Positions 1,706 through 44,951 of a stretch of DNA of 64,000 nt are shown here, piece after piece (positions within the stretch are counted from its first letter, which is position 1; every line of letters starts with the position of its first letter). This stretch comes from a virus. Under the pieces are notes generated by a model. That model did not search any database, was not told where the DNA came from, and saw nothing but the letters and a program-made list of their open reading frames with translations. The stretch lies in the IMG/VR virus record IMGVR_UViG_3300050821_014614; one strand, 5' to 3'. The position numbers and the translations under genes are program-made.

Positions 1706-1804
1706 CAGCGTTAAACTCGTTTCTTTGTGCAGGACAACCCCACAATGAAGCGGAGAAGCCGCGAGGCGAAGAATCCGCCGCAGCCCGCTGGCGGACCAGG
1801 GGAA

Positions 1805-1828
1805 GGCGGGAGTCGAGAGACTCCCGCC
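1805..1828 (-). terminator. GC-rich hairpin, possible intra-operon attenuator
   Basis: GGCGGGAGT-6 nt-ACTCCCGCC, perfect 9-bp stem between ORFs 1956-2327 and 731-1705; only a weak U-tract on the minus strand. Confidence 0.3.
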
Positions 1829-1955
1829 TTTCGTCACTCAGTAGCGATACAGCGCCTCATCGATGAGGTGCGTCTGGAACGCGAATCGCCCGGCGCCGCC
1901 TCTTTCGACCGCGCGCACAATCGGCACAACCGGTCATAGGCTGGCGGGGCGCCGC

Positions 1956-2821: not shown

Positions 2822-3733
2822 CTAGGTGCTCTGGACGTCGACGGCGAAGTTCTGCCGCAACGGCGCGCAGCCGTAGAGAACGTCGACCGTGAACTGCTGA
2901 GCGAGCGTGTTCGGCTGATAGCTCATCGTGACGCGCATGCCGAAATTGCCCATCTCGGCATACTCGGCGATCGCGCCGGTGCCGGGAAGCGGCATCGGGA
3001 GACGGCGAACCACCAGGCCGATGGCATCACGGACGAAGGCCAGATTGTGATAGAGCGTCGAGACTTTCGTGATGTACTGCGAACGGAAGATGTCGAAGCT
3101 CGTTCCGCGTAGCACCATACCCTCAGCGATCGGGCTGGGCTGGCCATTGATGACATAGCCGGCCGTCTGCAGCTCGGTGTACCGCGGGATCTGGCGCAAC
3201 GCCGTATAGGGGTTGTCGCCCACGATCAGGATTTTGCGCTGGCCGCCGGGAATCTTGGCGTTGAAGAGCGCCTGCTCCGCGGCGTTCAGCACGGCTTCCG
3301 TGATGGCCGCTGAGCCGCCCACTGCTGCGTTGGCGGTGTAGAGCGAATACATTGCGAGCAGATCCGTTTCGATCTTCTCGGCAATCGCGATCACGGCCGG
3401 CTGCATATAGACTTTGAGCAGATCGGGCGTCGCCAGAATGCGCGTTACGTCCGGAATCTGGAACGTTGCTTCCATGTGCGTGTTCAGCACGATTTGCGCG
3501 TTGCCGAGTGCCGGGTTCTGTGTGGTGACGGTGCCGGCTTCAGCGATGTTGTTCGCTGTGAGCTTGGGCGAGATCGGCACATTGACCGTGTCGCCTGCGC
3601 TGGCGAGCGTGGGCTCGAAATCGCGGTTCACCAGGTTGCCCATGAGGAGATTACCGACGAGCGCCGGGAGGGCGTCGGCGGCGACGAGTTTGACGATGGC
3701 TTGCGCCACATTTGCTGACGTAATTGCTGGCAT
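2822..3733 (-). CDS. major capsid protein, P22-coat-like family
   Basis: 303 aa after the scaffold-like ORF; N-terminal pattern LVGNLLMGNLVNRDFEP..AGDTVNVPISP recalls P22-coat-type capsid proteins (from memory, not searched). Confidence 0.75.
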   Translation of the reverse strand: MPAITSANVAQAIVKLVAADALPALVGNLLMGNLVNRDFEPTLASAGDTVNVPISPKLTANNIAEAGTVTTQNPALGNAQIVLNTHMEATFQIPDVTRILATPDLLKVYMQPAVIAIAEKIETDLLAMYSLYTANAAVGGSAAITEAVLNAAEQALFNAKIPGGQRKILIVGDNPYTALRQIPRYTELQTAGYVINGQPSPIAEGMVLRGTSFDIFRSQYITKVSTLYHNLAFVRDAIGLVVRRLPMPLPGTGAIAEYAEMGNFGMRVTMSYQPNTLAQQFTVDVLYGCAPLRQNFAVDVQST

Positions 3734-3825
3734 GCTGATTCAGGCTCCTTTTGCCTTGTTGTGCTGCTGTGACACGCCTGGCTTAGGAGCCGTTGGCTGT
3801 GTTTTTGTTGACTGGAAAGGTGGGG

Positions 3826-4566
3826 CTACTTAATACCGGCGGCGGATCGCACGGCTTCCCAAGCGGCGTCGCGGGCCTTCGGATCCATGCCCGGCTTGAT
3901 GTCTTCGAACTGGACCTGGCGGCCGGCGATCATACCGACACCCTGGCGAGCGCCAGAGGAATCGACCTGTTTCGGCGCGAGAAGATGAGTTTTCAAGGCC
4001 ATGCGGGTTTTAATGAAATCGCCGACGGGAACGAAATCGCCGCCATAGAGCACGCCGTCGTCTCCTCGCTTCACTTCATCGCGGAGCGCGCGGAAAGCGT
4101 CTTCGCGGGCATCGTCGGACGCGAACTGGAAGTCGCCAAGCGAACTGCGAATAGCTGCATGGCGTTCCTTTTCCTCCGCCTGCGCGTTGGTCTTTTTGTT
4201 GAGCTCTTCCGTGGCCGCGTTCTTTTCCTCGAGCGCCTTGAAGCGGGCCGCGAAATCCTTGTTGGCGCGCTCGAGGGCTGCGTATGCGGGGTCGCGCTTT
4301 GCGGCAGCTGCGGCATCGGCGGCTGCAGTCGCAGCAGCGGCATCTGCCGCGGCCTGCGCGGCTGCATCGTCGGTTGACGCCTTTGGTGCGTATTTTGCCA
4401 ATTCGGCCGTGAACTTCCTATCGGAGGCCGTTTGCGATGCCGTGATGGCTTTCGTTACCTCGGCCATCAGCGAAGTCTGAAACGCGGCTGCATCGAACGC
4501 TCCGGTTCCTCCGCCGGTGCCGCCGGTTTCTTCGAAGAGTCGGGACATCAATCCAAAATGTTTCAT
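3826..4566 (-). CDS. scaffolding protein
   Basis: 246 aa, Ala/Lys/Glu-rich with coiled-coil character, between portal and capsid genes. Confidence 0.6.
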   Translation of the reverse strand: MKHFGLMSRLFEETGGTGGGTGAFDAAAFQTSLMAEVTKAITASQTASDRKFTAELAKYAPKASTDDAAAQAAADAAAATAAADAAAAAKRDPAYAALERANKDFAARFKALEEKNAATEELNKKTNAQAEEKERHAAIRSSLGDFQFASDDAREDAFRALRDEVKRGDDGVLYGGDFVPVGDFIKTRMALKTHLLAPKQVDSSGARQGVGMIAGRQVQFEDIKPGMDPKARDAAWEAVRSAAGIK

Positions 4567-4581
4567 TTTTCCTTTATGTGG

Positions 4582-6123
4582 TTAGCTCGAGTAGCCCGCG
4601 AGCGATTGCGAGAACAGCGCCTGCTGCGTTACCGCCGCGGCGGCCGCCAGATCGGAAATCGTCGGCGCGGCATCGATCTCGGCATCGATGGCGGCGTAAA
4701 CTGCCGGGTTCGCGTCCTGCAGCCCGATGCGCACGAGCTTTTTCTGTATTTCCTTTGCGAAGGTGTCGGACTGAACGTTCTCGGCCTGAATAGCGCTGAG
4801 GAATTCCACGTCCTCGGCTCCGCCCTTGTCGGCGAAATCGAACCCGCGAATGTCAGCCGCTATCTCTGCATAGCCGCGGATCGTCAGCACGTCATCGAGC
4901 ACGCCCTGCATATCGGTGCGGAGGTTGTCTCCAAAGCCTTCCTGCGCGTCCTTCGAAGGCGATTTATCCTGTTCCTTCGAAATGCCGGATTGCGCCGCGG
5001 GCGTTGCCCGCCCGCTTCGCGCCTGATCGATCAGATAGCAGGATCGATAGACGTCCTCGCGCAGTTCGTGTAAACGCTCACGATGCGTCTGCATGGCCTT
5101 GCCTTCCGGCTCAAGCCATTCGGCGCGCGTTTCCTTATCGGGAAAGTGCAGCCACGAGACCTCGCTCATCGTCGGCGTGTCGTCGTAGGGTCCGAAAATC
5201 GCCAGCATGGCGAGGGCGGACTGGAAGATCTGCCAGTCGAGCGCGTTCTCCATATTCAGGTGCTTCAGCAGCGGCAGCATGACGCGATCGCCGAACCACA
5301 TGCCCTCCGGCGCATCGCAGCGCCGCAATGGCACGCGCTGGTGATCGCTCAGCGCGTGGCGCCGCGGATAGCCCGCGACGAGGGCCGCGTTCTCTTCTTT
5401 TGCTGCCGCGCCCGGGCCAGCCTCAAATAAAACTTCGTATGCTGCTACCTGATCGGGCGTGTAGATATACCAGCAAACACGCACCTGGGTTTCGCCCAGA
5501 AGGGCAGCCTCGAACGTTTGCACCTTCAATACCACCCAGATCACATTGCCGTAATCATCCGTTTTCCAGTTGAGAACGCAGGTCGGGTCATAAGTCAGAA
5601 TGACCGGATCGAGAGCGCCCGCAGCTTCCTGTTGTGCCAGCGATCCATACTGCGCGCCGGCGGAATCGGGAAGATCGATCAGCAGCCACGACCTGCCGAA
5701 AACGATCTGGTGCGCCAATACCTGCCGCCACTTATCGGCATAGGCGCCACCGTGGTGATCGCAGTCGAGCTCCCACTGGGCGATCCACGCAGCCGTGTCG
5801 GCGGGCACGGCATCCTGCGCCGCTTTGATGTCCGCGATTGCGCTGACCCGGGTCAGGATATCCGGCTCACGCGCGAACATCGACGAAACGTACCAGCCGG
5901 CGATATTGCCAAGCAGGTTCGAATAGTTGAAGTTCTCCTGGCGCGACGCGAAGACGTCGGCATGCTCTTTTACCCGACGCATGAGAACCTCGCCACAGTT
6001 CTCCTTCAAGACCGAACCGCCACCATAGAGCAGGCCCAGCTTTCGCCAGGCACCCTTGTAGAGGCTATATTCGGGGTGCTCGGCATCGAGCGCCTTAATC
6101 GGAACTGCAGCTGGAAAGTCCAT
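4582..6123 (-). CDS. portal protein
   Basis: 513 aa ORF between large terminase and scaffold genes; call based on position and size. Confidence 0.7.
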   Translation of the reverse strand: MDFPAAVPIKALDAEHPEYSLYKGAWRKLGLLYGGGSVLKENCGEVLMRRVKEHADVFASRQENFNYSNLLGNIAGWYVSSMFAREPDILTRVSAIADIKAAQDAVPADTAAWIAQWELDCDHHGGAYADKWRQVLAHQIVFGRSWLLIDLPDSAGAQYGSLAQQEAAGALDPVILTYDPTCVLNWKTDDYGNVIWVVLKVQTFEAALLGETQVRVCWYIYTPDQVAAYEVLFEAGPGAAAKEENAALVAGYPRRHALSDHQRVPLRRCDAPEGMWFGDRVMLPLLKHLNMENALDWQIFQSALAMLAIFGPYDDTPTMSEVSWLHFPDKETRAEWLEPEGKAMQTHRERLHELREDVYRSCYLIDQARSGRATPAAQSGISKEQDKSPSKDAQEGFGDNLRTDMQGVLDDVLTIRGYAEIAADIRGFDFADKGGAEDVEFLSAIQAENVQSDTFAKEIQKKLVRIGLQDANPAVYAAIDAEIDAAPTISDLAAAAAVTQQALFSQSLAGYSS

Positions 6124-6443
6124 CAGGCCTGGATGTAAGAAACGAGCAGCCCGTCCGCCGCGGTGTCGGCGTCGATGTAATAGTCGGCGGCATTCATCTG
6201 ATTGCCGTCCGGACCGTTAACTTTCAGCGGGTCGACGATGCCCGTCGCTGTGGGCTTAAGGAACGCCTTGATGACGCCGACACCGGTCGATTTCACGAGC
6301 GTCGACACGCCGAAGTACGTATTGCCGGCATTTCCGGGCACCGGCGAGATGATGAGGCCGTAACATGGCGTCGGCGTCGCTGTGACGCGCACCGGCGTGC
6401 CGGGAGTGACGCAGGCGATCTTGCCGAGAGGGACGATAATCAT
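6123..6443 (-). CDS. hypothetical protein
   Basis: 106 aa ORF between terminase and portal; 1-nt overlap with the portal start. Confidence 0.55.
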   Translation of the reverse strand: MIIVPLGKIACVTPGTPVRVTATPTPCYGLIISPVPGNAGNTYFGVSTLVKSTGVGVIKAFLKPTATGIVDPLKVNGPDGNQMNAADYYIDADTAADGLLVSYIQA

Positions 6444-6598
6444 TAGGCGTCGGCCTTCTTTTGCTCCGCCTCGTCTTCGGGCAGGACCGGCGCGATGCCG
6501 GCTATCAAACGTTTTGCAGTGGCGTGCGTGTGCGGGTCGACCGCGTGCTTCGCGGCCTCGTTCAGCAGAAACAGAATTGCCTCTTCGATTGGGTGCAT
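6443..6598 (-). CDS. small hypothetical protein (51 aa, below track threshold)
   Basis: ATG 6598 preceded by GAGGA; MHPIEEAILFLLNEAAKH...; TAATG overlap with the next ORF. Confidence 0.4.
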   Translation of the reverse strand: MHPIEEAILFLLNEAAKHAVDPHTHATAKRLIAGIAPVLPEDEAEQKKADA

Positions 6599-6621
6599 TT
6601 TGTTGTATCCTCTATAACCGG

Positions 6622-7971
6622 TTAAAGAAGTACTTCCGATTGCGGGCCGCCGCGCTGCCGGACCGGAAACTCGCGATGAATCAAATAGCCCAGCGCGTCA
6701 GAAACATGGGTACGGCGCGGATCGCGCTTGTCCATTGAGGCCGTCAGGTTGCCCGAAGCATCCGGCTTCCACGACACCTGTTCAAAATCGCGGACCAATT
6801 CCCTGCACTTCGGATCCACAAAAAGCCGTGCCTCGCCGAGCGAGTTGCACAGCATCGAATTGACGGCCGTAACGCGGTCTTTAACCGGCGGATCCGCCGA
6901 TGGGACCTTGAAATTAAAAACGAACCGACGGTCGTTGCGGAAGTACTCGCGAACTAATTCCCAGTCCGATGCGCCCGCGTGCGTGCGGGCATTGCCGGCG
7001 GCGTCGCCGTACACGTTCACGCGGATCTGGCCGCGTTGTTCCGCCCAGGGACCGGCCCGTCTCGCAAATTCCGCGCAGACCTCGCGAATGTTCGAATCCG
7101 GAAGGCAGATTTCGCCCAGCACCCGAACCGTGGCGCCGCGCCTGCCCATCAGCGCTTCCGCTCGTGTTCCCGATTCCTCGATCTGCACGATCAGGCTGCA
7201 CATCGGGTCGACGTTGAAATCGAGTGTCCAGCAAAGCTGGTTCGAATACAGGAAGCCCTGCGGCGCGATATTCAGCGCGCGATTGAACGCATAGTAGATG
7301 GCGCCCGTCGCCATGTTCTCGAAGCTGCCCTGATATTCCTGGCGGAAAGTCTTCTCGTCCAGATCCGCCGCGGAGGACTGGATTTCCTCGCGCGAGACAT
7401 TTCCACCGTCTTCCGTTGTGAACTGAAACGCCGCCCAATCGAGCTTCAGCCGGGCTTCCTGCCAGAGGTCGTAAAAGAACCCCATGCCCTTCGGCGTGCC
7501 GATAAACAGGGCCTTCCCCATCCGGTCCGAAAGCATTGGCCGGATAACCTCGGTCCACGCCTGGGGATGCATGTCCGCTACTTCGTCCATCACGACGAAA
7601 TCGAGGCCTTCGCCGCGGAGGTTGTCGTAGTTGTCCGCGCCGCGCAGTGCGATGACCGCGCCGCATTTCAGCTCGATCGATAAATCGGTTTCATTCGGAC
7701 GCCTGCGCCAATACGGCCGGGTGAGAGCCTTGAGCTGCTTCCACGCCACCCGTTTCGCCTGCTTATAGGTAGGCGCTACATACCAACAAACGCGTTCGGA
7801 AATCGGTGTCTGGCTGAAATCCGGATCTATGGCGGCCCGCAGAAGTGCCACGCACGCCAGAAACGTCTTGCCGAATCGCCTGCCTGCGACCAACACGATG
7901 AAACGCTTCAGGCAGCTGAAAACATCGCCTTGCGGCGGCCGGAGTCTGACTTCGACAGGGCCGCGTCTCAC
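6622..7971 (-). CDS. terL: terminase large subunit
   Basis: 449 aa; Walker A-like VAGRRFGKT and Walker B-like LDFVVMDEV; upstream of portal. Confidence 0.85.
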   Translation of the reverse strand: MRRGPVEVRLRPPQGDVFSCLKRFIVLVAGRRFGKTFLACVALLRAAIDPDFSQTPISERVCWYVAPTYKQAKRVAWKQLKALTRPYWRRRPNETDLSIELKCGAVIALRGADNYDNLRGEGLDFVVMDEVADMHPQAWTEVIRPMLSDRMGKALFIGTPKGMGFFYDLWQEARLKLDWAAFQFTTEDGGNVSREEIQSSAADLDEKTFRQEYQGSFENMATGAIYYAFNRALNIAPQGFLYSNQLCWTLDFNVDPMCSLIVQIEESGTRAEALMGRRGATVRVLGEICLPDSNIREVCAEFARRAGPWAEQRGQIRVNVYGDAAGNARTHAGASDWELVREYFRNDRRFVFNFKVPSADPPVKDRVTAVNSMLCNSLGEARLFVDPKCRELVRDFEQVSWKPDASGNLTASMDKRDPRRTHVSDALGYLIHREFPVRQRGGPQSEVLL

Positions 7972-7992
7972 TCATTGCAGCGGGCACGGACA

Positions 7993-8562
7993 TCAACGCT
8001 GCTGGATGGTGACGATGAATGGAGGCGGGTCTGCATTGTCGTCAGATTTATTGAGATCGCGCGTGCCGTAACGGTCAGGGAAGCGGCCCCGCTGGCGGAA
8101 CATCAGCAGAGCGTCCGATTTCTTCCAGACGCCGAGGATCTCGCCTCGCGCAAACTTGAGAATCGTCCTCCCCGTGATCGGATCAGTGGTGGTGAGCTGC
8201 AAGCCAGTCTCGGGATCCAGACACGGAATCTGTTCATACGAAAACTGACCCTGAAACACGAGTGGCTCGAAGACACCTTTGTATGCGCGGACCGAAACCT
8301 CGTCTTCGTAAGCGTCATCGCCTTCCGCCATCGCTTTGGCGAACCGGTCCGGATAACGGGGATCGGCGTCCATCCACTTGTAGTGCGACGTCCTGCCGAC
8401 TTTAGCCTCTTCGGCCGCCTGCTTGATACTGCCGGTGATGGCGATCGCGGCGAGAAAAGCGCGCTGCTTATTGCGCAGCGGGGATTTGAGCTTTCGTTTG
8501 CGCTTCGGCGCGGCCGCTGCGGGCGGCGTTTTCGCAGCTCGCTTTGTCGTTTTCGGTTTCAC
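7993..8562 (-). CDS. terS: terminase small subunit (HTH)
   Basis: HTH-like GSIKQAAEEAKVGRTSHYKWM directly upstream of TerL; start set to GTG 8562 (GTGA overlap with upstream stop); track ORF runs to 8664. Confidence 0.6.
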   Translation of the reverse strand: MKPKTTKRAAKTPPAAAAPKRKRKLKSPLRNKQRAFLAAIAITGSIKQAAEEAKVGRTSHYKWMDADPRYPDRFAKAMAEGDDAYEDEVSVRAYKGVFEPLVFQGQFSYEQIPCLDPETGLQLTTTDPITGRTILKFARGEILGVWKKSDALLMFRQRGRFPDRYGTRDLNKSDDNADPPPFIVTIQQR

Positions 8563-8825
8563 TGTGAAACAACTGACTTTTCGCGCAGATCGAACAGCGC
8601 CTTCGCTGCTTCGCGCGATGCCTTCCACTCCCGGTAATCGATTGAGCCCAGCGCCGGCCGGCATTCAGCCACGTCCCGCGCGGCTGCCGGGCAACCCGTA
8701 TACGCCAAAAGAAACGCCTGCCAGTGCCGGGTGAACGTTAGAGCGTGTTCCATTAGCGCCGCATCTGGCTCGGCTGCTATCGATACCGCGAACAGCAGCA
8801 CGCCGAGGAGCGCATATCGCTTCAC
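8559..8825 (-). CDS. exported small protein
   Basis: 88 aa; MKRYALLGVLLFAVSIAAE signal-like N-terminus; no lipobox Cys; next to lysis genes. Confidence 0.55.
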   Translation of the reverse strand: MKRYALLGVLLFAVSIAAEPDAALMEHALTFTRHWQAFLLAYTGCPAAARDVAECRPALGSIDYREWKASREAAKALFDLREKSVVSQ

Positions 8826-9010
8826 CCGATCTCCGGCATAGCTTGCACAATCAACTGCAGCCGCTGCTTCAGGAGCGCTTTAAGCGCCGCATTTTCGCGC
8901 GCCTGCTTCATCGCCTCGGCGTGCCACGCTTCCGCGGTGGCCTTCCAGGCCGCGGCGTCTTCGAGAAGTGCGGCCTTCTCTTCGAGGGATAGCTTCCACA
9001 TTTCAGCCAT
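8822..9010 (-). CDS. small coiled-coil protein
   Basis: Track ORF 8822-9112 trimmed to ATG 9010 (MAEMWKLSLEEKAALLED...); 8-nt overlap with the endolysin end. Confidence 0.45.
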   Translation of the reverse strand: MAEMWKLSLEEKAALLEDAAAWKATAEAWHAEAMKQARENAALKALLKQRLQLIVQAMPEIG

Positions 9011-9443
9011 CAAGACTCGGATCCCACGCGCACTGCTGGCCGTTCGGTCCGTAACACCAGCGCGCCTTCGCGGCTCTCGTGTCGACGTGGATATACCCGC
9101 CGTGCACAGCAACGCCGATCCCGCCCGCGGCGAACGCCGGTACCTGCAGCGCCTCCCTGTACATCCCGGCCGGCGTCATGCCCTGAATTTTGATATCGGC
9201 GGCCATCCCGAGCTCGTGCTCGGAGTCCGGAACACCGCCAACCTTTGCGTTATGCCCGCAGTGCCCTGGGGTCGGGGGTTGCCCAGGAAGCGGCAGCGGA
9301 CACCGGCACGCGCAGTCGACGGCGATCGAGACGCCAACAATTACACGCAGCGCCTCCAGCGAGTCCACAAGAACCTGATGGCAGCGGCAAAAGCCGCATC
9401 CGCGACAAGCCAGTTCGGCCTCGCTGAAGTGGGCAGAGTGCAT
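9003..9443 (-). CDS. endolysin, peptidase M15 (zinc D-Ala-D-Ala carboxypeptidase-like) family
   Basis: 146 aa; motifs HN..VGG...SEHELGMAADI and GGIGVAVHGGYIHVDTR typical of M15-type phage lysins. Confidence 0.8.
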   Translation of the reverse strand: MHSAHFSEAELACRGCGFCRCHQVLVDSLEALRVIVGVSIAVDCACRCPLPLPGQPPTPGHCGHNAKVGGVPDSEHELGMAADIKIQGMTPAGMYREALQVPAFAAGGIGVAVHGGYIHVDTRAAKARWCYGPNGQQCAWDPSLDG

Positions 9444-9445
9444 TT

Positions 9446-9745
9446 TTAGGGGACCAGCGGCGCAACGGGAGCGGCAGCGGCGGGCGCTGGCTTGAATGCC
9501 TTGATGAGCGCGGCGAACAGATTCACGAGAAGCGCGCAGCTGGCCACCGTGGGATTCGGGGAGTTTTCGAGTGCGCCGCTTCCTACCTCGATGCCGACGA
9601 GGACCTTATTCAGAAGAACGGACTGCTTGGTTGCACCCGACACGGGCGGCGCGATGGTTTCGATTGCCTGCACTCCCGCCAGAAGAGCGGGCGCGTAGGC
9701 AAGCGCCTCGGATGTGATTTGATTTGTAACTGCAAGTGTGGACAT
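9446..9745 (-). CDS. small hydrophobic protein, holin candidate
   Basis: 99 aa with 2-3 hydrophobic stretches, immediately upstream of the endolysin. Confidence 0.4.
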   Translation of the reverse strand: MSTLAVTNQITSEALAYAPALLAGVQAIETIAPPVSGATKQSVLLNKVLVGIEVGSGALENSPNPTVASCALLVNLFAALIKAFKPAPAAAAPVAPLVP

Positions 9746-9748
9746 AAG

Positions 9749-10501
9749 TCAGGTGAGGGCGATCAGCGCGAGCGCTTCCGGCATCTTCGCGATTCCAGGC
9801 CCGTACGATGCCGGAAGCGAATGCTCGAAATGCGCGTCGAGCGCCTGGCCGACGCTGATGGCGTTCAGCCATCCGTCAAAAACCGCCGTCATGCCAGCGT
9901 GGATGAACTGCGGACGGGGTGGACAATGCGTAACGATGTCCTTCGTATTGGAAACTCGCACCAGGGTGATCTTCGCGTCGCAATGCGTCTTCCACGCCAC
10001 ATCGCCGACCCGCGGGCTGGCGAACACGATGCAGGTGACGGGCAGGGAAGTCCCGCCCGCGATACTCGCGGCCGCAAGGGTTGCGGCGGCAGCGCCCAGC
10101 GAATGGCCGATTACGCAGAATTGCGTGCCAGCGCGCGTGTCCGCGATCGCGGAACGGATCGAAGGCAAGAGCGCTTCGAGCAGGCGCTGAAAACCGGCGT
10201 GTACTTTAAACCCGCCGACGTCCTCAAGTACCGATTCGAAATCGTCGATCCATTCGTCCGGCGTTTCCGTGCCGCGGATCGCGATATAAACCACGTTGCC
10301 CGCGGTGGCCACGAAACCGAAGTAGGGGTTGTCCGGCGAGATCTTGCCGAGAGGGCGGTCAAGTTGAATTGACCGGATTGAAGCGTAACCTGCGGGCAGC
10401 GCCGGCGTTTCGGAAACCACGGTATACGCCGCCTCGGCCAGCGGCAGCGCTACTTCAAGCAGGAACGCTTTGTCGATCAGCATTTGTAATCGCGAATCCA
10501 C
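9749..10501 (-). CDS. class 3 lipase-like alpha/beta hydrolase
   Basis: 250 aa; nucleophile elbow VIGHSLGAAAATLAA (GxSxG). Confidence 0.75.
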   Translation of the reverse strand: MDSRLQMLIDKAFLLEVALPLAEAAYTVVSETPALPAGYASIRSIQLDRPLGKISPDNPYFGFVATAGNVVYIAIRGTETPDEWIDDFESVLEDVGGFKVHAGFQRLLEALLPSIRSAIADTRAGTQFCVIGHSLGAAAATLAAASIAGGTSLPVTCIVFASPRVGDVAWKTHCDAKITLVRVSNTKDIVTHCPPRPQFIHAGMTAVFDGWLNAISVGQALDAHFEHSLPASYGPGIAKMPEALALIALT

Positions 10502-10932
10502 GCGCGGATCAAGAGCTGCAGCGGGCTGATGTGGAACGCCTCCGCCTCCGCCATCGCCTGCGCATTGGTCCAGTGATCCACGCTCATCCGGTACGCCGCG
10601 ATTACGGCGCCGGTTCGATCCTCACCGTGTTTGCAGTGCACGAAGCAAACGAAATCCGGATCCGCGATCAGATCGAAGATCTGAGCAATCTGCATTTCCA
10701 TCGGCGGCTCGACACCGAAAGTAAGCTCCGTCGCGCCGATGGCGATATTGTGATGCGCCATCCCGAGCGTCTCGCAGTCGATCGATTCGTCGGTGCGGCC
10801 GAAAGGCTCGCGAAGATCGATCACGGTCGTTACGCCTAGCGCCTTCAGCTCCGCGAACTGCGCGTCGGTGGGTTGCGCGCCACGATAGAGCTTGCCTGGA
10901 ACGACGACGCCGAAGTTGGTGATGGTGGTCAG
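10477..10932 (-). CDS. CX5R protein tyrosine/dual-specificity phosphatase-like protein
   Basis: P-loop VHCKHGEDRTG. No ATG/GTG/TTG close to the domain start, so start provisionally placed at CTG 10932 (CTGA overlap with upstream stop). Track ORF extends to 11328 across another coding frame. Confidence 0.7.
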   Translation of the reverse strand: MTTITNFGVVVPGKLYRGAQPTDAQFAELKALGVTTVIDLREPFGRTDESIDCETLGMAHHNIAIGATELTFGVEPPMEMQIAQIFDLIADPDFVCFVHCKHGEDRTGAVIAAYRMSVDHWTNAQAMAEAEAFHISPLQLLIRAWIRDYKC

Positions 10933-11294
10933 AACGGATGCCCCGCGGCGTAAACCCGCGCCGCCAGGATGACGACGACAGCTACAACCAACGCGGCCGT
11001 CTTCACCGTTAGATTGAAGCGCGCTTTCCGCGTTAGCTTCGCCGGCGGCGCGACCGTCACTGCAATCGCGGGCCCGATGGGGCCAGCCACGCCGGGCTGC
11101 CCCGCGGCGCCGCCGTCGATCTCGACCGGGAGCGATACCGTATTCGGTATAACCTGCGATGCTCCATCCGTCGCCGGGACCAGCAGCGGACTGTCCGCCG
11201 GAATCTGCATCAGGGTGCCAGTCGGCCCAATCGGATCGCCCTGCTGTGCGAAGGCGCAAACAGCGAGGAGCGCGAAGGTAAGAAGGAGTTTCAT
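10929..11294 (-). CDS. exported protein with C-terminal membrane anchor
   Basis: Track ORF trimmed to ATG 11294; MKLLLTFALLAVCAFAQQ signal peptide; C-terminal TAALVVAVVVILAARVYAA helix. Confidence 0.6.
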   Translation of the reverse strand: MKLLLTFALLAVCAFAQQGDPIGPTGTLMQIPADSPLLVPATDGASQVIPNTVSLPVEIDGGAAGQPGVAGPIGPAIAVTVAPPAKLTRKARFNLTVKTAALVVAVVVILAARVYAAGHPF

Positions 11295-11467
11295 TCTTTT
11301 CGGTCGCCAACAGACTCGCGGAGCGCAAGCGCTACATGGCCCACATCCCGCCAGGTCGCCCTGATCTCGGGCGGAAGGTTTTTCCACGACGGGTAAACGT
11401 TTTGATCGCCCAGCCGCGATCTCAGCCACGTACGGAAGAGCTGCTCCGCGAACGCATCGCTGGTCAC
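11291..11467 (-). CDS. small protein, paralog of ORF 12438-12692
   Basis: 58 aa from GTG 11467 (GTGA overlap with sigma stop); shares an F.E.L...SR...P.W..P..RA.WR...AL.L pattern with the 84-aa ORF. Confidence 0.5.
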   Translation of the reverse strand: MTSDAFAEQLFRTWLRSRLGDQNVYPSWKNLPPEIRATWRDVGHVALALRESVGDRKE

Positions 11468-11994
11468 GCGGCAGCCCGCATAACCCTGAGCGCTCTGGCC
11501 TCGATCTGGCTTGCGCGGCATTCACTTACGCCAAAGGAGAGTCCGACTGCCTTCAACGTTTCTCCGCGCATGCGCCGGCGAACCAGTTCGCAATCGCGAT
11601 CCTTGAGGCCGCCCATGAGAGTCTCGACATCGAGCGCGGCTTCCATCGCGGGCCATGGATCCACGGCGGGGCCTTTGTTCACGCGAAGCTCGAGGTCTCC
11701 ATTTTTACGTCTGTACCCGGCATCGATAGATACCATCGCCCCATAGGCGAATCCCACACGGCGGTTACCGGTTTCCTGCCTGAGGGCATCCAGCGCCGCG
11801 AATCTCATTCGGCTGTGGACCCGGGCCTCTTCCGAACCCAGACCGTTCCAACTTCGAAAAGCGGGTATAGAGGCCATCAGAGCCTCCTGTTTCAGATCGT
11901 CGACAGGAATTCTGAAGCCCGTGATGCGGGAGATCCGCCAGGCAATACTTTGTGCGCGGCCCGCGTACTTCGCGACAATCTCGTCATCCGTCAT
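11464..11994 (-). CDS. sigma-70 family sigma factor (small, ECF/group-4-like)
   Basis: 176 aa; region-2-like DDLKQEALMASIPAFRSW and region-4.2-like LSFGVSECRASQIEARALRVMR. Confidence 0.75.
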   Translation of the reverse strand: MTDDEIVAKYAGRAQSIAWRISRITGFRIPVDDLKQEALMASIPAFRSWNGLGSEEARVHSRMRFAALDALRQETGNRRVGFAYGAMVSIDAGYRRKNGDLELRVNKGPAVDPWPAMEAALDVETLMGGLKDRDCELVRRRMRGETLKAVGLSFGVSECRASQIEARALRVMRAAA

Positions 11995-11997
11995 AAC

Positions 11998-12441
11998 TCA
12001 TTTAGTGAGCTGGTGGATATTACTGCCGACCGCGATGCCGAGCGGAACGGCTAACCCCGCGTTAACCACTGTGATCGTGAAAACATAGTTGGGCGTGCTC
12101 TTGCCGAGCCACACCGGAATCCACTCAGCCAGGCCGGCCGCAGCCACCGCGATCTTTACCCCGGTGAATCGCGGCACATCGATCTGGCATGGCGCCGAGA
12201 TAAGCAGCGGGTTCAGCTCACACCCGCCGGTGCCCGGGAACGCGCCCCGTCTGGTGGTGGCATAATCGCCGACGTTAATCATCTGCAGGATCGTGTCTGT
12301 GATCAGCATCCCGTCGAGAGACTTACGACTCGAATGGAAGCTGGCCACCGGATGTACAACCCACTTCAGCGGCATCGACACCGTGAGCGATGCGGCGTGG
12401 GCAGACAGCGCCAGGAAGGCGATAAGGAGTAGCATTTTCAT
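11998..12441 (-). CDS. exported/membrane protein
   Basis: Trimmed to ATG 12441; MKMLLLIAFLALSAHA signal peptide; two C-terminal hydrophobic helices. Confidence 0.6.
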   Translation of the reverse strand: MKMLLLIAFLALSAHAASLTVSMPLKWVVHPVASFHSSRKSLDGMLITDTILQMINVGDYATTRRGAFPGTGGCELNPLLISAPCQIDVPRFTGVKIAVAAAGLAEWIPVWLGKSTPNYVFTITVVNAGLAVPLGIAVGSNIHQLTK

Positions 12442-12692
12442 GGCTGGTGATACATCGCATTCGGGCCGACAGGCGCCCGGAGATATGCAGTCCGGACCTG
12501 CGGCGCCAATCTCAGCGCGGTCTCCGCGGCGGATCGCCACGCGGCTCTGACGCACGGCGACATGTCTTCAAATAGCGGGTTGACGTCGACTCCGGACTCC
12601 GGCGGGAAGCGCGATGCAAAGAACGCGGTATAGAGAAATTCGGTGAAGTCGGAAAGGCTGAGGCCTTCGGGCTTCGGAACGGGAACGGTCAC
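12438..12692 (-). CDS. small protein, paralog of ORF 11291-11467
   Basis: 84 aa from GTG 12692 (GTGA overlap); ATGA overlap with the next ORF. Confidence 0.5.
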   Translation of the reverse strand: MTVPVPKPEGLSLSDFTEFLYTAFFASRFPPESGVDVNPLFEDMSPCVRAAWRSAAETALRLAPQVRTAYLRAPVGPNAMYHQP

Positions 12693-12760
12693 GCGCGCGG
12701 CCTCCAGTGGAGGGCGAGTATCAGGGCCGAGAGGATCAGCACGGTGACGAGTTCTTTCAT
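12689..12760 (-). CDS. 23-aa hydrophobic micro-ORF
   Basis: MKELVTVLILSALILALHWRPRA; ATGA overlap upstream and GTGA overlap downstream. Confidence 0.3.
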   Translation of the reverse strand: MKELVTVLILSALILALHWRPRA

Positions 12761-12930
12761 TTGTGCAGCCCGTCGCGGCCCGTGGCGCCTGTCGCACCCA
12801 CGGCACCGGTGGCTCCTGTCGTTTTCGCCGCCTTCGCTTCGAGCTTCCGGACCCGGTGTTCGAGGACCGCACCGCAGAGCAGAAGCGCCATCACCGCGAC
12901 GCACAGCACCACCGTCATCGGGTCTGTCAT
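12757..12930 (-). CDS. 57-aa membrane micro-protein with short collagen-like tail (below track threshold)
   Basis: MTDPMTVVLCVAVMALLLCGAVLEHRVRKLEAKAAKTTGATGAVGATGATGRDGLHK; ATGA overlaps at both ends. Confidence 0.45.
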   Translation of the reverse strand: MTDPMTVVLCVAVMALLLCGAVLEHRVRKLEAKAAKTTGATGAVGATGATGRDGLHK

Positions 12931-13541
12931 TTCTTCGCCTTTGGCGCGTCCGCTTTCTTCACGTCCGCCGCTTCGATCTCAACCGGAGTATCGCGGCCGA
13001 ACATGGGCAACATTAAAGTGAGGAGCGTGCCGCCTTTGATTCGGGCGATCACGGCGGAGCGCCCCGCGAACGATCCGGATTTCACCGTGACCGAAGCACC
13101 TACCACATAAGGGCAGCATGCGTCGGGAACGGTTGACTCGATCACTTGTCGCAGGTCCGCGATTTCGCAATCAGGAATCGAAACGGGAATCTGGTCGATA
13201 CTCAAAATCGTTACAACGCCGCGCGCCCGGCTGATCGATGGCGCATCGGCCGGATCGAACCGCGCAAAGATATAGCCCGGGAACAAGGGCCGCGTCGTGA
13301 CCTTCTCACGATCGCTCCACTTCACGCGTTCATCCCAGGTCGGGAGAAATTCCTCGACGCCTTCGCCGCGGAGCTGGTCACGAACCGAAAATTCGAAACG
13401 CGATCTGGTCTGGATAGCGAACCAGGAAGGTGAAGCCGCTACGCGGGCGTCCGGGGAGAACGCAGACCTCTGCAGCGCGGGCGAAACGACGGGAATCTGA
13501 TGCACTACGTGCCCTTGAGTCCCGGATTCCACCTGGTGCAT
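12927..13541 (-). CDS. NusG/RfaH-family transcription antiterminator paralog (NGN + KOW)
   Basis: WFAIQTRSRFEFSVRDQLRGEGVEEFLPTW...PLFPGYIFARF (NGN-like) and GASVTVKSGSFAGRSAVIARIKG (KOW-like); start set to ATG 13541, the track TTG 13598 lies inside the promoter-like motif. Confidence 0.8.
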   Translation of the reverse strand: MHQVESGTQGHVVHQIPVVSPALQRSAFSPDARVAASPSWFAIQTRSRFEFSVRDQLRGEGVEEFLPTWDERVKWSDREKVTTRPLFPGYIFARFDPADAPSISRARGVVTILSIDQIPVSIPDCEIADLRQVIESTVPDACCPYVVGASVTVKSGSFAGRSAVIARIKGGTLLTLMLPMFGRDTPVEIEAADVKKADAPKAKK

Positions 13542-13570
13542 TTGAAGTTGCGTAACGGCCTCACGAGCCC

Positions 13571-13610
13571 TATCGGCGCGCGCCGGAAAAACGTGCAAAC
13601 GCGAATTTAG
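13571..13610 (-). promoter_or_regulatory. conserved motif copy A (TTGCAC-17 nt-CGATAG), promoter-like
   Basis: Minus-strand reading CTAAATTCGCGTTTGCACGTTTTTCCGGCGCGCGCCGATA; similar to copies at 14007-14050 and 50401-50444. Confidence 0.55.
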
Positions 13611-14002
13611 TTCTTCGCCTGCACTGCGTCGCCGAGGGCTTTTGTCACCCGCAAAAGCTTGTCGTTGATGTGATTGCCGATATCGATTGCAGTCGCGCTG
13701 GCATCGGTCGATTCCTGCACCTTGCTGACGATGTGGGCCTCGCTTGCGTCGCGCTGTATGACGGCGGCGGCGAATGCGAGGCGGACCTGTTCCGCCTGGA
13801 AGTCGCGCGATTCTTTTTCGCGCGCATAGCGGTTGGCTTCAGCGGCGCGGTCGGCGCGGCGATTGATGGCAGTCGTGATGATCGAGCAGAAACCGGCGAC
13901 GATGGTGCCATAGAGCGCGAGATGCGCGCCGTCGGGCTGCGCGAGGATCACCGCAACGCTGCCGAGGCTCGCTGCCTGCAAGGCTGAGGGTAGATGTTCC
14001 AA
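13607..14002 (-). CDS. membrane protein (two N-terminal helices, coiled-coil tail)
   Basis: 131 aa ORF with TTG start abutting motif copy B; the true start may be further in. Confidence 0.55.
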   Translation of the reverse strand: MEHLPSALQAASLGSVAVILAQPDGAHLALYGTIVAGFCSIITTAINRRADRAAEANRYAREKESRDFQAEQVRLAFAAAVIQRDASEAHIVSKVQESTDASATAIDIGNHINDKLLRVTKALGDAVQAKN

Positions 14003-14006: not shown

Positions 14007-14050
14007 GCTAATCGGCGCGCGCGGGGGAAACGTGCAAACGGGCGGTTTAG
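14007..14050 (-). promoter_or_regulatory. conserved motif copy B (TTGCAC-17 nt-CGATTA), promoter-like
   Basis: CTAAACCGCCCGTTTGCACGTTTCCCCCGCGCGCGCCGATTAGC on the minus strand, in the divergent gap between late and early blocks. Confidence 0.55.
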
Positions 14051-14158
14051 GGGGTGGGTTTATTTTCGCGGAATGACTTGACAACAAACCAGCAAAATGC
14101 TATTCTTAGGGAGTACCTGATTAGACCAGCCTGGCAACCCCGGGCGGAGAACAAAACA

Positions 14159-14317
14159 ATGACCAACGAAGAAATGCAGCACTCGATAGAGGCCCACGAC
14201 CGGCAAATCAATTCCGTGGTTGCGCTGCTGGCGACACTCGCGGAACGCCTTAACTCCCTGGTGCACCTGGCTGAAATCCAGAATCAGCGCATCACCCGGC
14301 TGGAAGGCAACGTATAG
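14159..14317 (+). CDS. small coiled-coil protein
   Basis: Trimmed to ATG 14159 with GGAGA 8 nt upstream; followed by a terminator. Confidence 0.5.
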   Translation: MTNEEMQHSIEAHDRQINSVVALLATLAERLNSLVHLAEIQNQRITRLEGNV

Positions 14318-14325
14318 GTAAGGCA

Positions 14326-14352
14326 GGGCGCGGCCTTCGCGCCCTTTTTTAT
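14326..14352 (+). terminator. rho-independent terminator
   Basis: GGGCGCG-GCCTT-CGCGCCC stem-loop followed by TTTTTTATT. Confidence 0.6.
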
Positions 14353-18766: not shown

Positions 18767-18990
18767 AATTCCGTCAGAACCTCGATACGACCAACCGGCT
18801 GCTGAATGACCCCGCCACGACTGCGATGGGCGGCTATTCGATCGGCATTGTGTCTTCGCTGGCGGAGCAGGAAGGCGTCGTCGCGCCCGACGCGTTGCTT
18901 GAGGCCGCAGCGCAATGCCAGACCGTCAAGGAGGCAGTTGATCTGTTTCGGAGCTGCGTTGACCTCCGGAGGGGTAAGGCCTCCACGTGA
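18763..18990 (+). CDS. hypothetical protein
   Basis: 75 aa; coupled to the ATPase gene. Confidence 0.5.
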   Translation: MKFRQNLDTTNRLLNDPATTAMGGYSIGIVSSLAEQEGVVAPDALLEAAAQCQTVKEAVDLFRSCVDLRRGKAST

Positions 18991-20789
18991 AGGGACTTCA
19001 TCTCTCTGACGATCTGACGCTGCCTCTCGATGCGGTCACGTCCACGCTGATCGTTTACGGCGGGAAGGGAATGGGTAAGACAAATCTCGGCACCGTCTTC
19101 TGCGAGGAACTGTCCGCAGCGAACCAGCGCTTCTCCGTCATCGATCCGATGGGCGTGTTTTGGGGATTGCGCCATTCGGCCGACGGCAAAGGCCGCGGTA
19201 TCGAAGTTCTGATTCTCGGCGGTAAACACGGCGACATGCCGATCGAGCCCACCGGCGGCGCCGTCGTTGCCGACCTGGTGGCGGACGAATCGATCAGCGT
19301 CATTATCGACATATCCAGAAAACCGGATGGGAAGATGTGGGCGCGCGGCGAACGAACCCGCTTTGTCGCCGATTACTGCACGCGCCTCTATGAACGCCAG
19401 GGTGAACGCCGGCGGCCGCTGATGCAGATCATCGACGAGGCCGGCCGCTTTTGTCCGGAGCAGATCCGCAAGGATGAGATCGACATGGCGCGCTGTCTTG
19501 GCGCAGTGGCTTCGCTCGTGGAGGAAGCGAGAAACGTCGGCGTGGGGGTGATGCTCATAACCCAGCGATCGGCGCGCATGAGCAAAGCGGTGTCGGAACT
19601 CGCCGATGCGATGTTCGCATTCCGCACCGTGGGGCCCCGATCAGTGGATGCGATTCTCGACTGGTTCGGCGATCACGTGCCTAAGGAGCGCTGGAAGGAA
19701 CTGATCGGCCAGCTCCGGGCGCTCCCTCGCGGTACCGCGCTGGTCGTGTCGCCCGGCTGGCTGGAGTTTGAAGGCCAGGCTGCGATTCGCATGCGCGCAA
19801 CGTTCGATTCATCCGCTACGCCGAAGGCCGGCAAAGAACAGCACGCCTCCGGATCGGGCGCGATACCCGATCTTTCGCGTTATGCGGCGCGGATGGCGGA
19901 AACCATCGAGCGCGTCAAGGCGGACGATCCGCGCGAGCTCCGCCGCCAGATCGCGGAGCTGAAGAAGCAAATCGCGAAACCGCCGGCAGCAGCTGCTCCC
20001 GCGAAAGCGGCAAAGGCGCCTGCCGCGTCGAGAGAGGACCTGGACAAAGCCACAATGCGCGGCGCCATGCAGATGGCCAACCAGATGTCGCGGGAATTCA
20101 AGGTGATCATCGGACCGGTTCGCAAAGGGTTACTGCAAGGCATTGCAACCCTTCGCAAGGCTGCCGCTGAACTCGAGGCGGCGCTTCCGCCCGAAACGAT
20201 CGAATTCAAGGCGATGGTGAACCTGCCTACCGCCGCGCCTCCGGATCCGCCCGCAGTTCGGCCGCCGGCACGGCCCGTTGTCAGGCAACCGGCGCCGTCT
20301 GCAGTTCCGCGCGACAGCAGCAACGGAACGCTGCCTGGACCTGAACGCAAAATTCTGACCGCTCTCGCCCAGTATCCGGACGGCCTCACCAAGCAGCGGC
20401 TGGGCGCGCTGGCCGGATATACCGTCAATGGCAATTTCTATAACCTGCTCGGCGCGCTGCGGGCGAAAGGCGCCGTCACGCCGAAGGGAGTGGATCCGAT
20501 TGCGATCACGAACGAAGGACTGGAAACGCTCGGACCGTTCGAGCCACTACCGACAGGCCGCGCCCTTCGCGAATACTGGCTGAACAAAATCAGCGCGCCT
20601 GAAGCAAAAGTGCTGAAGGTTTTGTTCGATGCGTATCCCGCTGAGATGACGAAGGAAGATCTCGCCTCGCAATCCGGATACGTGGTCAATGGCAATTTCT
20701 ACAACCTACTCGGCGGGTTGCGAAGCCGCGGACTGATGACGCCGAAAGGCACGAGCCCGCGCGCCGCGCACGAGATGTTCGAAGAATGA
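18987..20789 (+). CDS. P-loop NTPase, HerA/FtsK-like, with duplicated C-terminal winged-helix-like module
   Basis: Walker A VYGGKGMGKT, Walker B LMQIIDEAGRF; C-terminal repeats ...GYTVNGNFYNLLGALRAKGAVTPKG and ...GYVVNGNFYNLLGGLRSRGLMTPKG. Confidence 0.7.
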   Translation: MKGLHLSDDLTLPLDAVTSTLIVYGGKGMGKTNLGTVFCEELSAANQRFSVIDPMGVFWGLRHSADGKGRGIEVLILGGKHGDMPIEPTGGAVVADLVADESISVIIDISRKPDGKMWARGERTRFVADYCTRLYERQGERRRPLMQIIDEAGRFCPEQIRKDEIDMARCLGAVASLVEEARNVGVGVMLITQRSARMSKAVSELADAMFAFRTVGPRSVDAILDWFGDHVPKERWKELIGQLRALPRGTALVVSPGWLEFEGQAAIRMRATFDSSATPKAGKEQHASGSGAIPDLSRYAARMAETIERVKADDPRELRRQIAELKKQIAKPPAAAAPAKAAKAPAASREDLDKATMRGAMQMANQMSREFKVIIGPVRKGLLQGIATLRKAAAELEAALPPETIEFKAMVNLPTAAPPDPPAVRPPARPVVRQPAPSAVPRDSSNGTLPGPERKILTALAQYPDGLTKQRLGALAGYTVNGNFYNLLGALRAKGAVTPKGVDPIAITNEGLETLGPFEPLPTGRALREYWLNKISAPEAKVLKVLFDAYPAEMTKEDLASQSGYVVNGNFYNLLGGLRSRGLMTPKGTSPRAAHEMFEE

Positions 20790-21510: not shown

Positions 21511-22275
21511 ATGAAGTGTCTGTTGTTATTCGCGCCGGCGGTGTTCTGCTTCGCGCAGACGCCGCCGCCCGCGGTCTCGCCGCCCGCGATCTCAGCTTTT
21601 TATCGCCTCGCGGGGCAGGCCGTTAGTCCGGACGAAGGTAAGACGTCGGGGTTCGTCCAGTACAAATGGGCGCTCGTCGACTCTCCGCTCACGTTCACGT
21701 TCGACCTTGCAGGCGCGCCACACCTGGGGGTTTCCGGCGCTGTCGGCGCAACAGGTCCGTCTGGCGCGGATGGCCTGCCGGGCACCGCAGGTCCTGCAGG
21801 AGCTTCAGGCGCGCCTGGCGCAACCGGTCAGCAGGGCGGCGCTGGTGCTGCAGGCGCGGCCGGAGCTGCAGGTCCGCCCGGCGCGACGGGCGCAGCGGGC
21901 TCCGTCGTCGGCATGACGGTCGAAACCGGCTGCGCTACTGCCGCTGGCTGTGTTGTACTCGGAACCGCGACCACGCTCGATGTCGAGCCCGGCATCGGCA
22001 CGCTCTGCGTACCGCAGCTCGATCCAACCAAAGGCGTGATGACGTTGCAGTGCAGCAGCGACACGTCGATCATCGCATATCGGGTTGATGTTCCCACCGG
22101 CGCCGGCCCTTGCGTCGATCCGCTTGATAAACACGCCTACGGTGCAAGCGTGTGGGCTTCAGACGCATCCGGCTTTTACACTTGTGTGCTGCCCCCCGGA
22201 ACGGTGTTGCCCTTGGCGCCAGGCGTGCCGCTGGTCCTCGTGTGGTCTCGCACCGCGGCGACTGTGAGCTGGTAA
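21511..22275 (+). CDS. secreted collagen-like repeat protein
   Basis: MKCLLLFAPAVFCFAQ signal peptide; about 60 aa of G-X-Y triplets (GAVGATGPSGADGLPGTAGPAGASGAPGATGQQG...). Confidence 0.7.
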   Translation: MKCLLLFAPAVFCFAQTPPPAVSPPAISAFYRLAGQAVSPDEGKTSGFVQYKWALVDSPLTFTFDLAGAPHLGVSGAVGATGPSGADGLPGTAGPAGASGAPGATGQQGGAGAAGAAGAAGPPGATGAAGSVVGMTVETGCATAAGCVVLGTATTLDVEPGIGTLCVPQLDPTKGVMTLQCSSDTSIIAYRVDVPTGAGPCVDPLDKHAYGASVWASDASGFYTCVLPPGTVLPLAPGVPLVLVWSRTAATVSW

Positions 22276-24672: not shown

Positions 24673-24676
24673 ACTG

Positions 24677-29018: not shown

Positions 29019-29340
29019 AATATCCCTCCTGATAACTGGGAAAATATCCAGGCCGAAAAAGTACTGTCGGGTCTTGCGGGAGGGAACGGCTGGCGGGTAA
29101 AATGTTTTTACGTTACGCTGGAAGAGCGTCGCGCAGATTACGCCTGCCTCCTCGCAAAACCTGCTAATTCACCCTGGAAAAGTTGTTAGCAGACAGCGCG
29201 CGGAAACGACGCTCTCACGGCGAATGGCTCTCGCCAGTCGCTTTCAATCCACGCGCATTCGCGCGACAACCACTTAGCTGAAAATTGGGGGAACTCGTGA
29301 CGGAGGAGAGGTGCGTCCGAACATGCCGCGTGGCGCGGCG

Positions 29341-44946: not shown

Positions 44947-44951
44947 AACCA

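Follow-up and report, generated by a model that had tools for sequence, protein, structure and literature searches.

A NusG-family paralog at a long late gene array: evidence for a phage-specific lineage placed like lambda Q

The 64,000-nt virus record IMGVR_UViG_3300050821_014614, called the window here over its whole length, carries on its minus strand an open reading frame (ORF), 12927-13505, which encodes a genuine NusG-family protein (NusG/Spt5 superfamily) with NGN and KOW domains. Our results support a specialised, non-housekeeping NusG copy carried by a phage, and a phage-specific lineage of specialised NusG paralogs (NusG-SPs) placed like lambda Q is well supported. We consider it probable, with appreciable room for doubt, that this phage NusG-SP loads on host RNA polymerase (RNAP) early in the leftward unit and keeps it processive through the late gene array, in the place of a Q-like protein. 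Specialised NusG paralogs control capsule, lipopolysaccharide (LPS), antibiotic and conjugation operons, and antitermination is classic to phage late transcription (N, Q). If the proposed role is correct, phages have repeatedly adopted a universal elongation factor, and not a new RNAP-binding protein, to guard long late transcripts.

NGN-like and KOW-like segments had been noticed in the original prediction, which was made from the DNA letters and proposed a profile and fold comparison with the two families. This comparison found similarity to both, and profile searches, an AlphaFold2 model and Foldseek agree on the assignment. The Pfam NusG/NGN family (PF02357) matched residues 39-131 of a 204-aa reading of the gene with an E-value of 4.6e-17 (62.8 bits; gathering cut-off 22.2 bits), while Pfam KOW reached 19.4 bits, slightly below its cut-off of 22.3. 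A profile made from 24 family members matched full-length E. coli NusG (5e-20) and RfaH (1e-18) as well as isolated NusG KOW chains (2kvq_G, E 1.6e-8). Using the single sequence, RfaH 5ond_A was the best match in PDB (E 1.3e-8), with both domains aligned. The AlphaFold2 model has a mean predicted local distance difference test score (pLDDT) of 81 and consists of a disordered stretch of about 26 residues at the N-terminus, an alpha/beta NGN domain (pLDDT about 90) and a five-strand barrel (pLDDT 76-88). Foldseek comparison of this model with PDB placed NusG and RfaH on top and also found Spt5.

Two segments of the protein stand out. PLFPGYIF aligns with FFPGYV of NusG and LFPNYLF of RfaH, the segments that bind the beta-prime clamp helices, and five of its positions (L, F, G, Y and F) do not vary across 20-24 family members. 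Judged by sequence, the clamp-helix contact motif is present and the paralog may be expected to bind beta-prime. The last KOW strand, MFGRDTPVEIE, strikingly resembles IFGRATPVEL of E. coli NusG, a segment that binds both S10 and Rho in that protein.

Among the named NCBIfam families, UpxY scored best (NF033644, 89.6 bits vs a cut-off of 100), followed by RfaH (TIGR01955, 70.1 vs 144.5; NF006534, 51.5 vs 124), housekeeping NusG (TIGR00922, 53.1 vs 135.7) and LoaP (NF033641, 40.1 vs 125). The housekeeping secE-nusG-rplK context is absent, and the neighbours of the paralog are phage genes. Like RfaH, the paralog lacks the NGN insertion of NusG and conserves the PLFPGY motif and R73, and RfaH is likewise associated with horizontally acquired long operons. 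The residues that contact ops in the RfaH:ops structure are K10, H20, R23, Q24 and R73. In the paralog, Q replaces H20, G replaces R23 and E replaces Q24, while R73 is kept and K10 falls outside the alignment; the HTT motif of RfaH is absent. The C-terminal domain is modelled as a beta-barrel and not as the RfaH alpha-hairpin, a result from a 24-sequence alignment that is suggestive, not decisive, and direct reading of the leader found no ops sequence (GGCGGTAGnnTG). The RfaH type that had been suggested is not supported for a protein whose C-terminal domain is modelled as a barrel and in which three of the four aligned ops-contacting residues differ.

UpxY of Bacteroides capsule operons is the closer comparison. 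Both proteins are compact with NGN + KOW architecture. UpxY is a leading gene of the long operon that it regulates and needs the leader of that operon; the paralog comes second in some 16.7 kb of same-strand genes, which it would presumably serve, and has a conserved leader between promoter and gene. The target of UpxY, however, is a capsule locus, whereas the presumed target of the paralog is a phage late array. The paralog differs further in its score below the family cut-off, in the clustering of viral copies apart and in the lack of a following UpxZ-like antagonist; the small proteins encoded downstream of it match no NCBIfam family. The paralog leader is also without YGCGNAGCR, an ops-type sequence described in PMC11685472. 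ActX, TraB, IncX3 PrfaH and LoaP are also specialised NusG copies that lie on a mobile element or gene cluster beside a very long operon, of the tra (PMC7593976) or antibiotic-cluster kind. PrfaH (9ik0_A) was among the fold and sequence matches of the paralog. These proteins serve conjugation or secondary metabolism, in contrast to virion morphogenesis as the target class of the phage protein. The likeness to lambda Q is one of position and logic: the Q gene, too, directly precedes the lysis, terminase, head and tail genes in the same orientation and follows a promoter with a conserved transcribed leader. In sequence and fold, Q is unrelated to the paralog. Q engages RNAP at a promoter, by way of a DNA site and a sigma-dependent pause; members of the NusG family instead attach to the clamp helices once RNAP is elongating. 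No equivalent of the tR' terminator was found at the paralog locus.

Relatives of 69-100% identity occur on phage-like contigs with the same gene order, and close relatives show a 131-aa gene, a leader of about 100 nt, the NusG-SP, small genes, sigma/GerE genes, PTPase/lipase genes, an M15 peptidase gene and terminase. At 47-59% identity, relatives lie on phage contigs of 28-48 kb, 1-2 kb upstream of terminase and a P22-type portal and with a sigma factor nearby; this spacing was seen in distant phages at 47-54% identity. Many proteins of about 40% identity bear the label NusG or UpxY. In the relatives L004, L005, L244 and L245, the paralog has sigma or GerE genes as companions. Searches with two degenerate peptide patterns returned at least 146 IMG/VR contigs that encode relatives of the paralog. 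For 65 of the returned loci, the 8 kb downstream were scanned for the nearest ORF on the same strand with 380 aa or more. This ORF belongs to terminase large-subunit families in about 35 loci (the sum of four family counts), is a portal in 2 and a ParB-N6 methylase in 14. The suggested position of a specialised NusG paralog at a late array is therefore conserved, with terminase as the first large downstream ORF in about 35 of 65 viral loci.

Cellular relatives show different surroundings. In GTDB, with one genome per species, the best matches are at most 43% identical and come overwhelmingly from Acidobacteriota (Vicinamibacterales, Bryobacterales and Terriglobia). Their downstream genes encode Wzz, Poly_export/SLBB proteins, epimerases and sugar transferases, with no terminase. 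Since these copies head polysaccharide operons, the ancestral logic would be that of a "first gene of a long operon". The nearest neighbour is viral for 77 of 84 viral copies and cellular for 155 of 158 cellular copies, with two reservations: the sets were picked as top matches with differing patterns, and misclassified DNA may occur among IMG/VR calls. On this comparison, viral copies as a lineage separate from the cellular ones are well supported. A metagenome scan with a broad alignment returned mostly cellular-type relatives of at most 46% identity and added no close phage loci. A tblastn search of 50,697 deposited phage records gave eight weak matches, none of them to a cultured phage: five unannotated human-gut contigs, one 635-kb uncultured phage and two Salmonella records with rfaH.

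A phage with its own NusG paralog as late-gene antiterminator had been called unusual. This view is at odds with the at least 146 IMG/VR contigs and with the existence of a PHROG family, phrog_6386, "transcription antiterminator", which matches residues 36-196 of the paralog with an E-value of 3.9e-21. The match extends over the full length of the protein and indicates that phage NusG-like proteins are already catalogued with a predicted antiterminator role; the role label itself is a computational annotation. We found no experimental study of a phage-encoded NusG paralog in the literature searched. Phage-encoded members are not discussed in a 2021 NusG review; a NusG-like regulator is named in a survey of Helicobacter prophages (PMC11321410). 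GafZ, from the gene transfer agent of Caulobacter, was considered as a precedent and set aside: it is described as acting together with host NusA, NusG and NusE, and the passages that mention NusG do not call it a NusG paralog. New here are how widely and consistently the gene is placed upstream of terminase and the separate viral lineage, together with the tie to cellular polysaccharide-operon regulators and a defined candidate recruitment leader. The locus amounts to a compact system of promoter motif, conserved leader of about 60 nt, factor and long array, which is available in dozens of natural variants.

The motif TTTGCACGTTT-N7-GCGCGCCGAT has three exact copies in the window, all on the minus strand, compared to 0.01 expected (Table 1). 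It reads TTGCAC, a spacer of 17-18 nt and CGATAG/GATTAG, and from its sequence it could be a promoter for a host sigma factor or for a phage one. The copy at the paralog is nearly invariant in six homologous leaders and also present in L002, and the tandem pair of copies is 439 nt apart in the window and 437 nt apart in L001. The paralog had been described as the first gene after a conserved motif. The upstream motif stands; the paralog, however, is the second gene of the array, as an identical motif and the 131-aa gene (13607-14002) lie 439 nt upstream. By synteny this 131-aa gene is also upstream of the paralog in L003, L244, L245 and L246. Downstream of the third copy are a 72-aa ORF (50175-50393) and, after it, a tail-fibre gene with collagen repeats (49026-50156, minus strand). 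No second promoter motif common to the other array gaps was found (before the coat and TerS genes, at 1706-1955 and in the tail gaps). A possible fourth copy of motif and leader was rejected: the 9-10-mers common to the leader and 44869-46463 are scattered and non-collinear, and the local alignment score of 30 is attributable to chance.

The gene had been read from ATG 13541 (204 aa), a start that relatives do not share. The conserved start is GTG 13505 (192 aa); it is preceded by GGGACTCAAGGGCACGTA, which is conserved in L003 and L245 and present as one-base variants in L001 and L244. Gene callers also give 192 aa (P0001, 100% identical). The leader is conserved in two boxes, the second of which overlaps this start. 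Box 1 is identical in L003 and near-identical, with a 2-nt insertion, in L245; a variant, GTTTGCCGC.(A/T)ACGCAA, is found in L001, L244 and L246, and L002 retains the first half only. The core of box 2, GGGACTCAAGGGCAC-GTA-GTGC, lies at a fixed distance of 43-45 nt from the end of the motif in seven phages, with variable sequence in between, and is kept in L246 where the GTG is lost. Its 4-bp hairpin (GCAC/GTGC) has the loops GTA, GCA, TTT and TCC and one compensatory stem change, in L246. Every one of the 28 cells is paired, yet the observed value is also attained in 77 of 500 shuffles, and consensus folding of the leader recovers the 4-bp hairpin only, with an unfavourable covariation term (+1.06 kcal/mol). 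No known RNA element, such as put or EAR, was found by Rfam over the whole window at gathering thresholds. We regard the leader as probably a recruitment element for the paralog; if so, it would add one more to ops, opsX and the LoaP RNA hairpins.

In the 67-kb relative L002 (8926-10516) the leader region is arranged differently. The motif and leader boxes are present and are followed by an insertion of about 950 bp before the NGN coding region. This insertion holds a 283-aa ORF on the opposite strand, and the NGN region now starts from a new ATG and encodes 177 aa without the N-terminal tail.

Minus-strand ORF chaining, family searches and independent gene calls (L247) give the following order for the array: 131-aa gene, paralog, three small genes, exported protein, sigma factor, exported proteins, PTP-type phosphatase, lipase, M15 peptidase, small ORFs, TerS, TerL, portal, scaffold, coat and four more genes. 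The functions that had been listed from the sequence (sigma region 4, PTPase, Lipase_3, M15 peptidase, TerS, TerL, DUF4055 portal and P22-like coat) are all recovered. Packing is tight, as had been stated, the real gaps being one of 92 nt ahead of the coat gene and one of 250 nt (1706-1955); the accompanying statement that genes usually overlap as NTGA fails, since such overlaps occur at about 5-7 of about 25 junctions and most others are gaps of 1-35 nt. The array also does not end at position 144 but runs via 1,754 bp into the right end of the window. L247, assembled independently (ENA), matches window positions 10734-1 at 100% identity and then, after these 1,754 bp, 64000-55898, also at 100%. 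The joining piece (L247 10735-12488) carries genes for proteins of 325, 90 and 99 aa, plus the first part of a gene for a tail-like protein of 200 aa. As the window ends are joined in L247, the source genome is circular or circularly permuted with a size of about 65,754 bp, in agreement with relatives on 61-67 kb contigs. In a circular genome the uninterrupted same-strand array measures about 16.7 kb, from 14002 through position 1 to 63067, and beyond it tail genes extend in the same direction to at least 46464, with two brief breaks. A prophage with host flanks was ruled out by uniform GC content (0.575-0.635 per 2-kb window), no tRNA genes and the self-closing window. Two tyrosine recombinase genes of the phage integrase family (31028-32008, with an N-terminal SAM-like domain, and 36295-37068, both on the plus strand) suggest that the phage is probably temperate.

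The original prediction had mentioned one weak hairpin within the array. The hairpin at 1803-1830 is instead a perfect 12-bp stem with a free energy (dG) of -23.8 kcal/mol (z -2.9; reached by 0 of 200 shuffles) and is a candidate attenuator, terminator or RNA-stability element. On the plus strand, a near-consensus sigma-70 promoter at 14078-14106 (TTGACA-17-TATTCT with TG) opens a rightward unit, in which a small ORF of about 52 aa (14159-14317) is followed by a canonical terminator at 14325-14345 (9-bp stem and T-run, dG -16.2). This layout of early promoter, small gene and terminator is lambda-like, and the rightward unit may itself need antitermination.

Taken as a late antiterminator, the paralog, UpxY-like in sequence and compact like RfaH, would, like the family members already characterised, bind the beta-prime clamp helices of host RNAP through its NGN domain and displace host NusG, and the NGN-bound polymerase would be pause-resistant and Rho-resistant. 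The KOW barrel, with its NusG-like FGRxTPVE strand, might tether the lead ribosome via S10. Transcription from the leftward promoter-like motifs would then run through the array of about 16.7 kb without premature termination; read-through would probably extend into the tail genes, and the array would be partly translationally coupled. Recruitment would probably occur via the leader, with box 1 (13548-13564) and the box 2 hairpin (13502-13523) as candidates. With the factor encoded at the start of the unit served, as UpxY and LoaP are, its synthesis would set up a feed-forward switch. Of this picture, the family, the fold, the gene order, the placement kept in many phages, the viral lineage and the leader conservation are direct results, whereas RNAP binding, action against pausing or Rho, the target operon and the recruitment site are inferred. 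As a tentative extension, possible though somewhat doubtful as a whole, phage NusG paralogs may represent a widespread third route of late control beside Q-type antiterminators and late sigma factors or activators. They would be recruited by their own leader (box and hairpin 43-45 nt from a dedicated promoter motif), act with phage sigma factors and couple RNAP to ribosomes over late units of 17 to >30 kb in hosts such as Acidobacteriota, for which we know of no phage transcription biology. If the role is correct, late-gene control could be annotated better in uncultured phages from soil and freshwater.

Several observations weigh against an antiterminator recruited at this leader. The paralog is under the curated cut-off of every named NusG-SP family (UpxY, RfaH and LoaP) and of housekeeping NusG. 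The array shows no enrichment of canonical intrinsic terminators (13 vs 16.5 expected; 16 vs 20.5 in a second scan), counts that refer to this type, Rho-dependent sites not being predictable. The one candidate terminator to be overcome in the array is the hairpin at 1803-1830, which is without a U-tract. Since the KOW domain keeps the residues that bind Rho in E. coli NusG, the effect on Rho could be in either direction. Covariation support for the box 2 hairpin is weak. A search of the leader and the other motif copies for a shared element had been proposed; boxes 1 and 2 each occur once in the window and are absent after the other two copies. Their conservation may reflect translation signals, as they overlap the ribosome-binding site and start codon; against this, box 2 persists in L246 despite the lost GTG and in L002 despite the insertion of about 950 bp between it and the NGN coding region. 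Finally, the phage has two sigma-70 family factors, one in the array (11464-11994) and a second of 386 aa at 23617-24777, both on the minus strand, and these alone could explain late-gene control. The second passes the ECF-superfamily cut-off, with regions 2 and 4 resembling FliA/WhiG, while the array factor, along its entire length, aligns to TIGR02937 at 30.7 bits, under the cut-off of 42.9.

Some of these points would suit a general take-over factor, which replaces host NusG on all elongating RNAP, has no operon-specific element and blunts NusG/Rho silencing of phage DNA. Leader boxes that are unique in the window would be expected of it, as would a KOW domain modelled as a constitutive beta-barrel, without an RfaH-like autoinhibited alpha-hairpin to impose site-specific activation, and a FGRDTPVE strand that resembles housekeeping NusG. 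However, site-specific recruitment is the rule for every NusG-SP characterised (PMC11685472; PMC7819879). Seven phages keep the leader at a constant spacing from the promoter motif, and there is strong conservation of the paralog's place heading one particular unit. We therefore consider a general take-over unlikely. Somewhat more improbable still is an early, N-like regulator of an immediate-early leftward unit, which would allow read-through to the sigma-like gene or elsewhere (e.g. terminator 14325-14345) while phage sigma factors drive the late promoters. A divergent control region that combines the near-consensus sigma-70 promoter, small ORF and canonical terminator is indeed only some 500 nt away from the paralog, and the two sigma-70 family genes in the window and the sigma/GerE genes accompanying the paralog in relatives could supply such factors. 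Yet a search upstream of the structural genes turned up no second promoter motif that recurs, the stretch between the paralog and the lysis and terminase genes is free of sizeable gaps and terminators, and the motif of the paralog also precedes tail-fibre genes, which points to the same promoter class as the late genes.

The cellular relatives raise another scenario, that of a host-directed moron which mimics host UpxY-like regulators and turns on or disturbs host polysaccharide operons for capsule or exopolysaccharide (EPS) during lysogeny or infection. The closest cellular relatives do head polysaccharide operons, in Acidobacteriota and other phyla, and a temperate phage with two tyrosine recombinases would suit such a gene. 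Identity to cellular copies is nevertheless at most 43%, viral copies form their own cluster, no polysaccharide gene occurs within the window, and a position embedded in the late array and conserved beside terminase is atypical of morons. This scenario seems very improbable to us, and the processive late antiterminator remains our preferred explanation. Coordinates of the paralog, its leader and the array genes are listed in Table 1.

Table 1. Coordinates of the paralog, its candidate control elements and the leftward array in the window
Feature	Position	Strand	Remarks
Promoter-like motif, copy 1	14011-14038	-	9 nt before TTG start of first leftward gene (131 aa)
First leftward gene, 131 aa	13607-14002	-	Hydrophobic N-terminus; no family match; conserved upstream of paralog
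Promoter-like motif, copy 2	13572-13599	-	Directly upstream of NusG paralog
Leader box 1, GTGAGGCCGTTACGCAA	13548-13564	-	From leader comparison; candidate recruitment/pause element
Leader box 2, GGGACTCAAGGGCACGTAGTGC	13502-13523	-	Hairpin GCAC-GTA-GTGC overlaps GTG start codon
Phage NusG paralog, 192 aa	12927-13505	-	From profile searches, fold model and gene callers
Parts of paralog (residues)			Disordered N-terminal tail ~26 residues; NGN ~27-123; KOW barrel ~137-184
Three small genes	12438-12930	-	57 aa, 12757-12930; ~23 aa, 12689-12760; 84 aa, 12438-12692; ATGA/GTGA overlaps
Sigma-70 family (ECF-like) factor, 176 aa	11464-11994	-	Pfam Sigma70_r4, E 6e-7; phrog_351
Cargo and lysis block	8559-11328	-	Exported protein, PTP-type phosphatase, class-3 lipase (Lipase_3), 99-aa ORF, M15 peptidase (endolysin), small ORFs
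Packaging and head genes	2822-8664	-	TerS, 7993-8664; TerL, 6622-7971; two small ORFs
Portal, scaffold and coat genes		-	Portal (DUF4055), 4582-6123; 246-aa putative scaffold, 3826-4566; P22-like coat, 2822-3733
GC-rich hairpin, perfect 12 bp, GGCGGGAGUC-UCUC-GACUCCCGCC	1803-1830	-	In 250-nt gap; without U-tract
Last two array genes in window, 324 aa and 196 aa	144-1705	-	Array runs on past left edge
Array continuation after circular join	63067-64000	-	Ends before opposite-strand gene 62475-62882
Promoter-like motif, copy 3	50405-50432	-	11 nt before 72-aa signal-peptide ORF 50175-50393

Some array neighbours deserve mention in their own right. The first two of the three small genes (57 aa and about 23 aa) encode hydrophobic proteins, and the 57-aa membrane protein (12757-12930) beside the paralog ends in a short TGATGAVGATGATG repeat. 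The PTP/dual-specificity phosphatase and class-3 lipase genes (9749-11328, minus strand) between the regulators and the endolysin are an unusual late/lysis cargo; close relatives (the P0006 contig and L244) keep the phosphatase, the lipase or both. In L003, a gene of the Acb2/Tad1-hairpin family (anti-CBASS/Thoeris sponges) is located between TerL and portal (12147-12530), and the equivalent spot in the window holds only a 51-aa ORF (6443-6598).

Other features were found elsewhere in the window. Collagen-like Gly-X-Y repeats occur in a 254-aa protein (21511-22275, plus strand) and in the tail fibre (49026-50156, minus strand). A 600-aa ORF at 18987-20789 weakly resembles terminase or a TrwB-type ATPase and contains, at 20372-20722 (plus strand), an internal 90-nt duplication with 70% identity between copies 261 nt apart. 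Two tandem 32-nt direct repeats of 94% identity, spaced 38 nt (TAATTTGACATAAGATGTGGCCTCGGAAGCTG), are present at 29341-29410 and look like paired promoter/operator sites near ORF 29215-29709.

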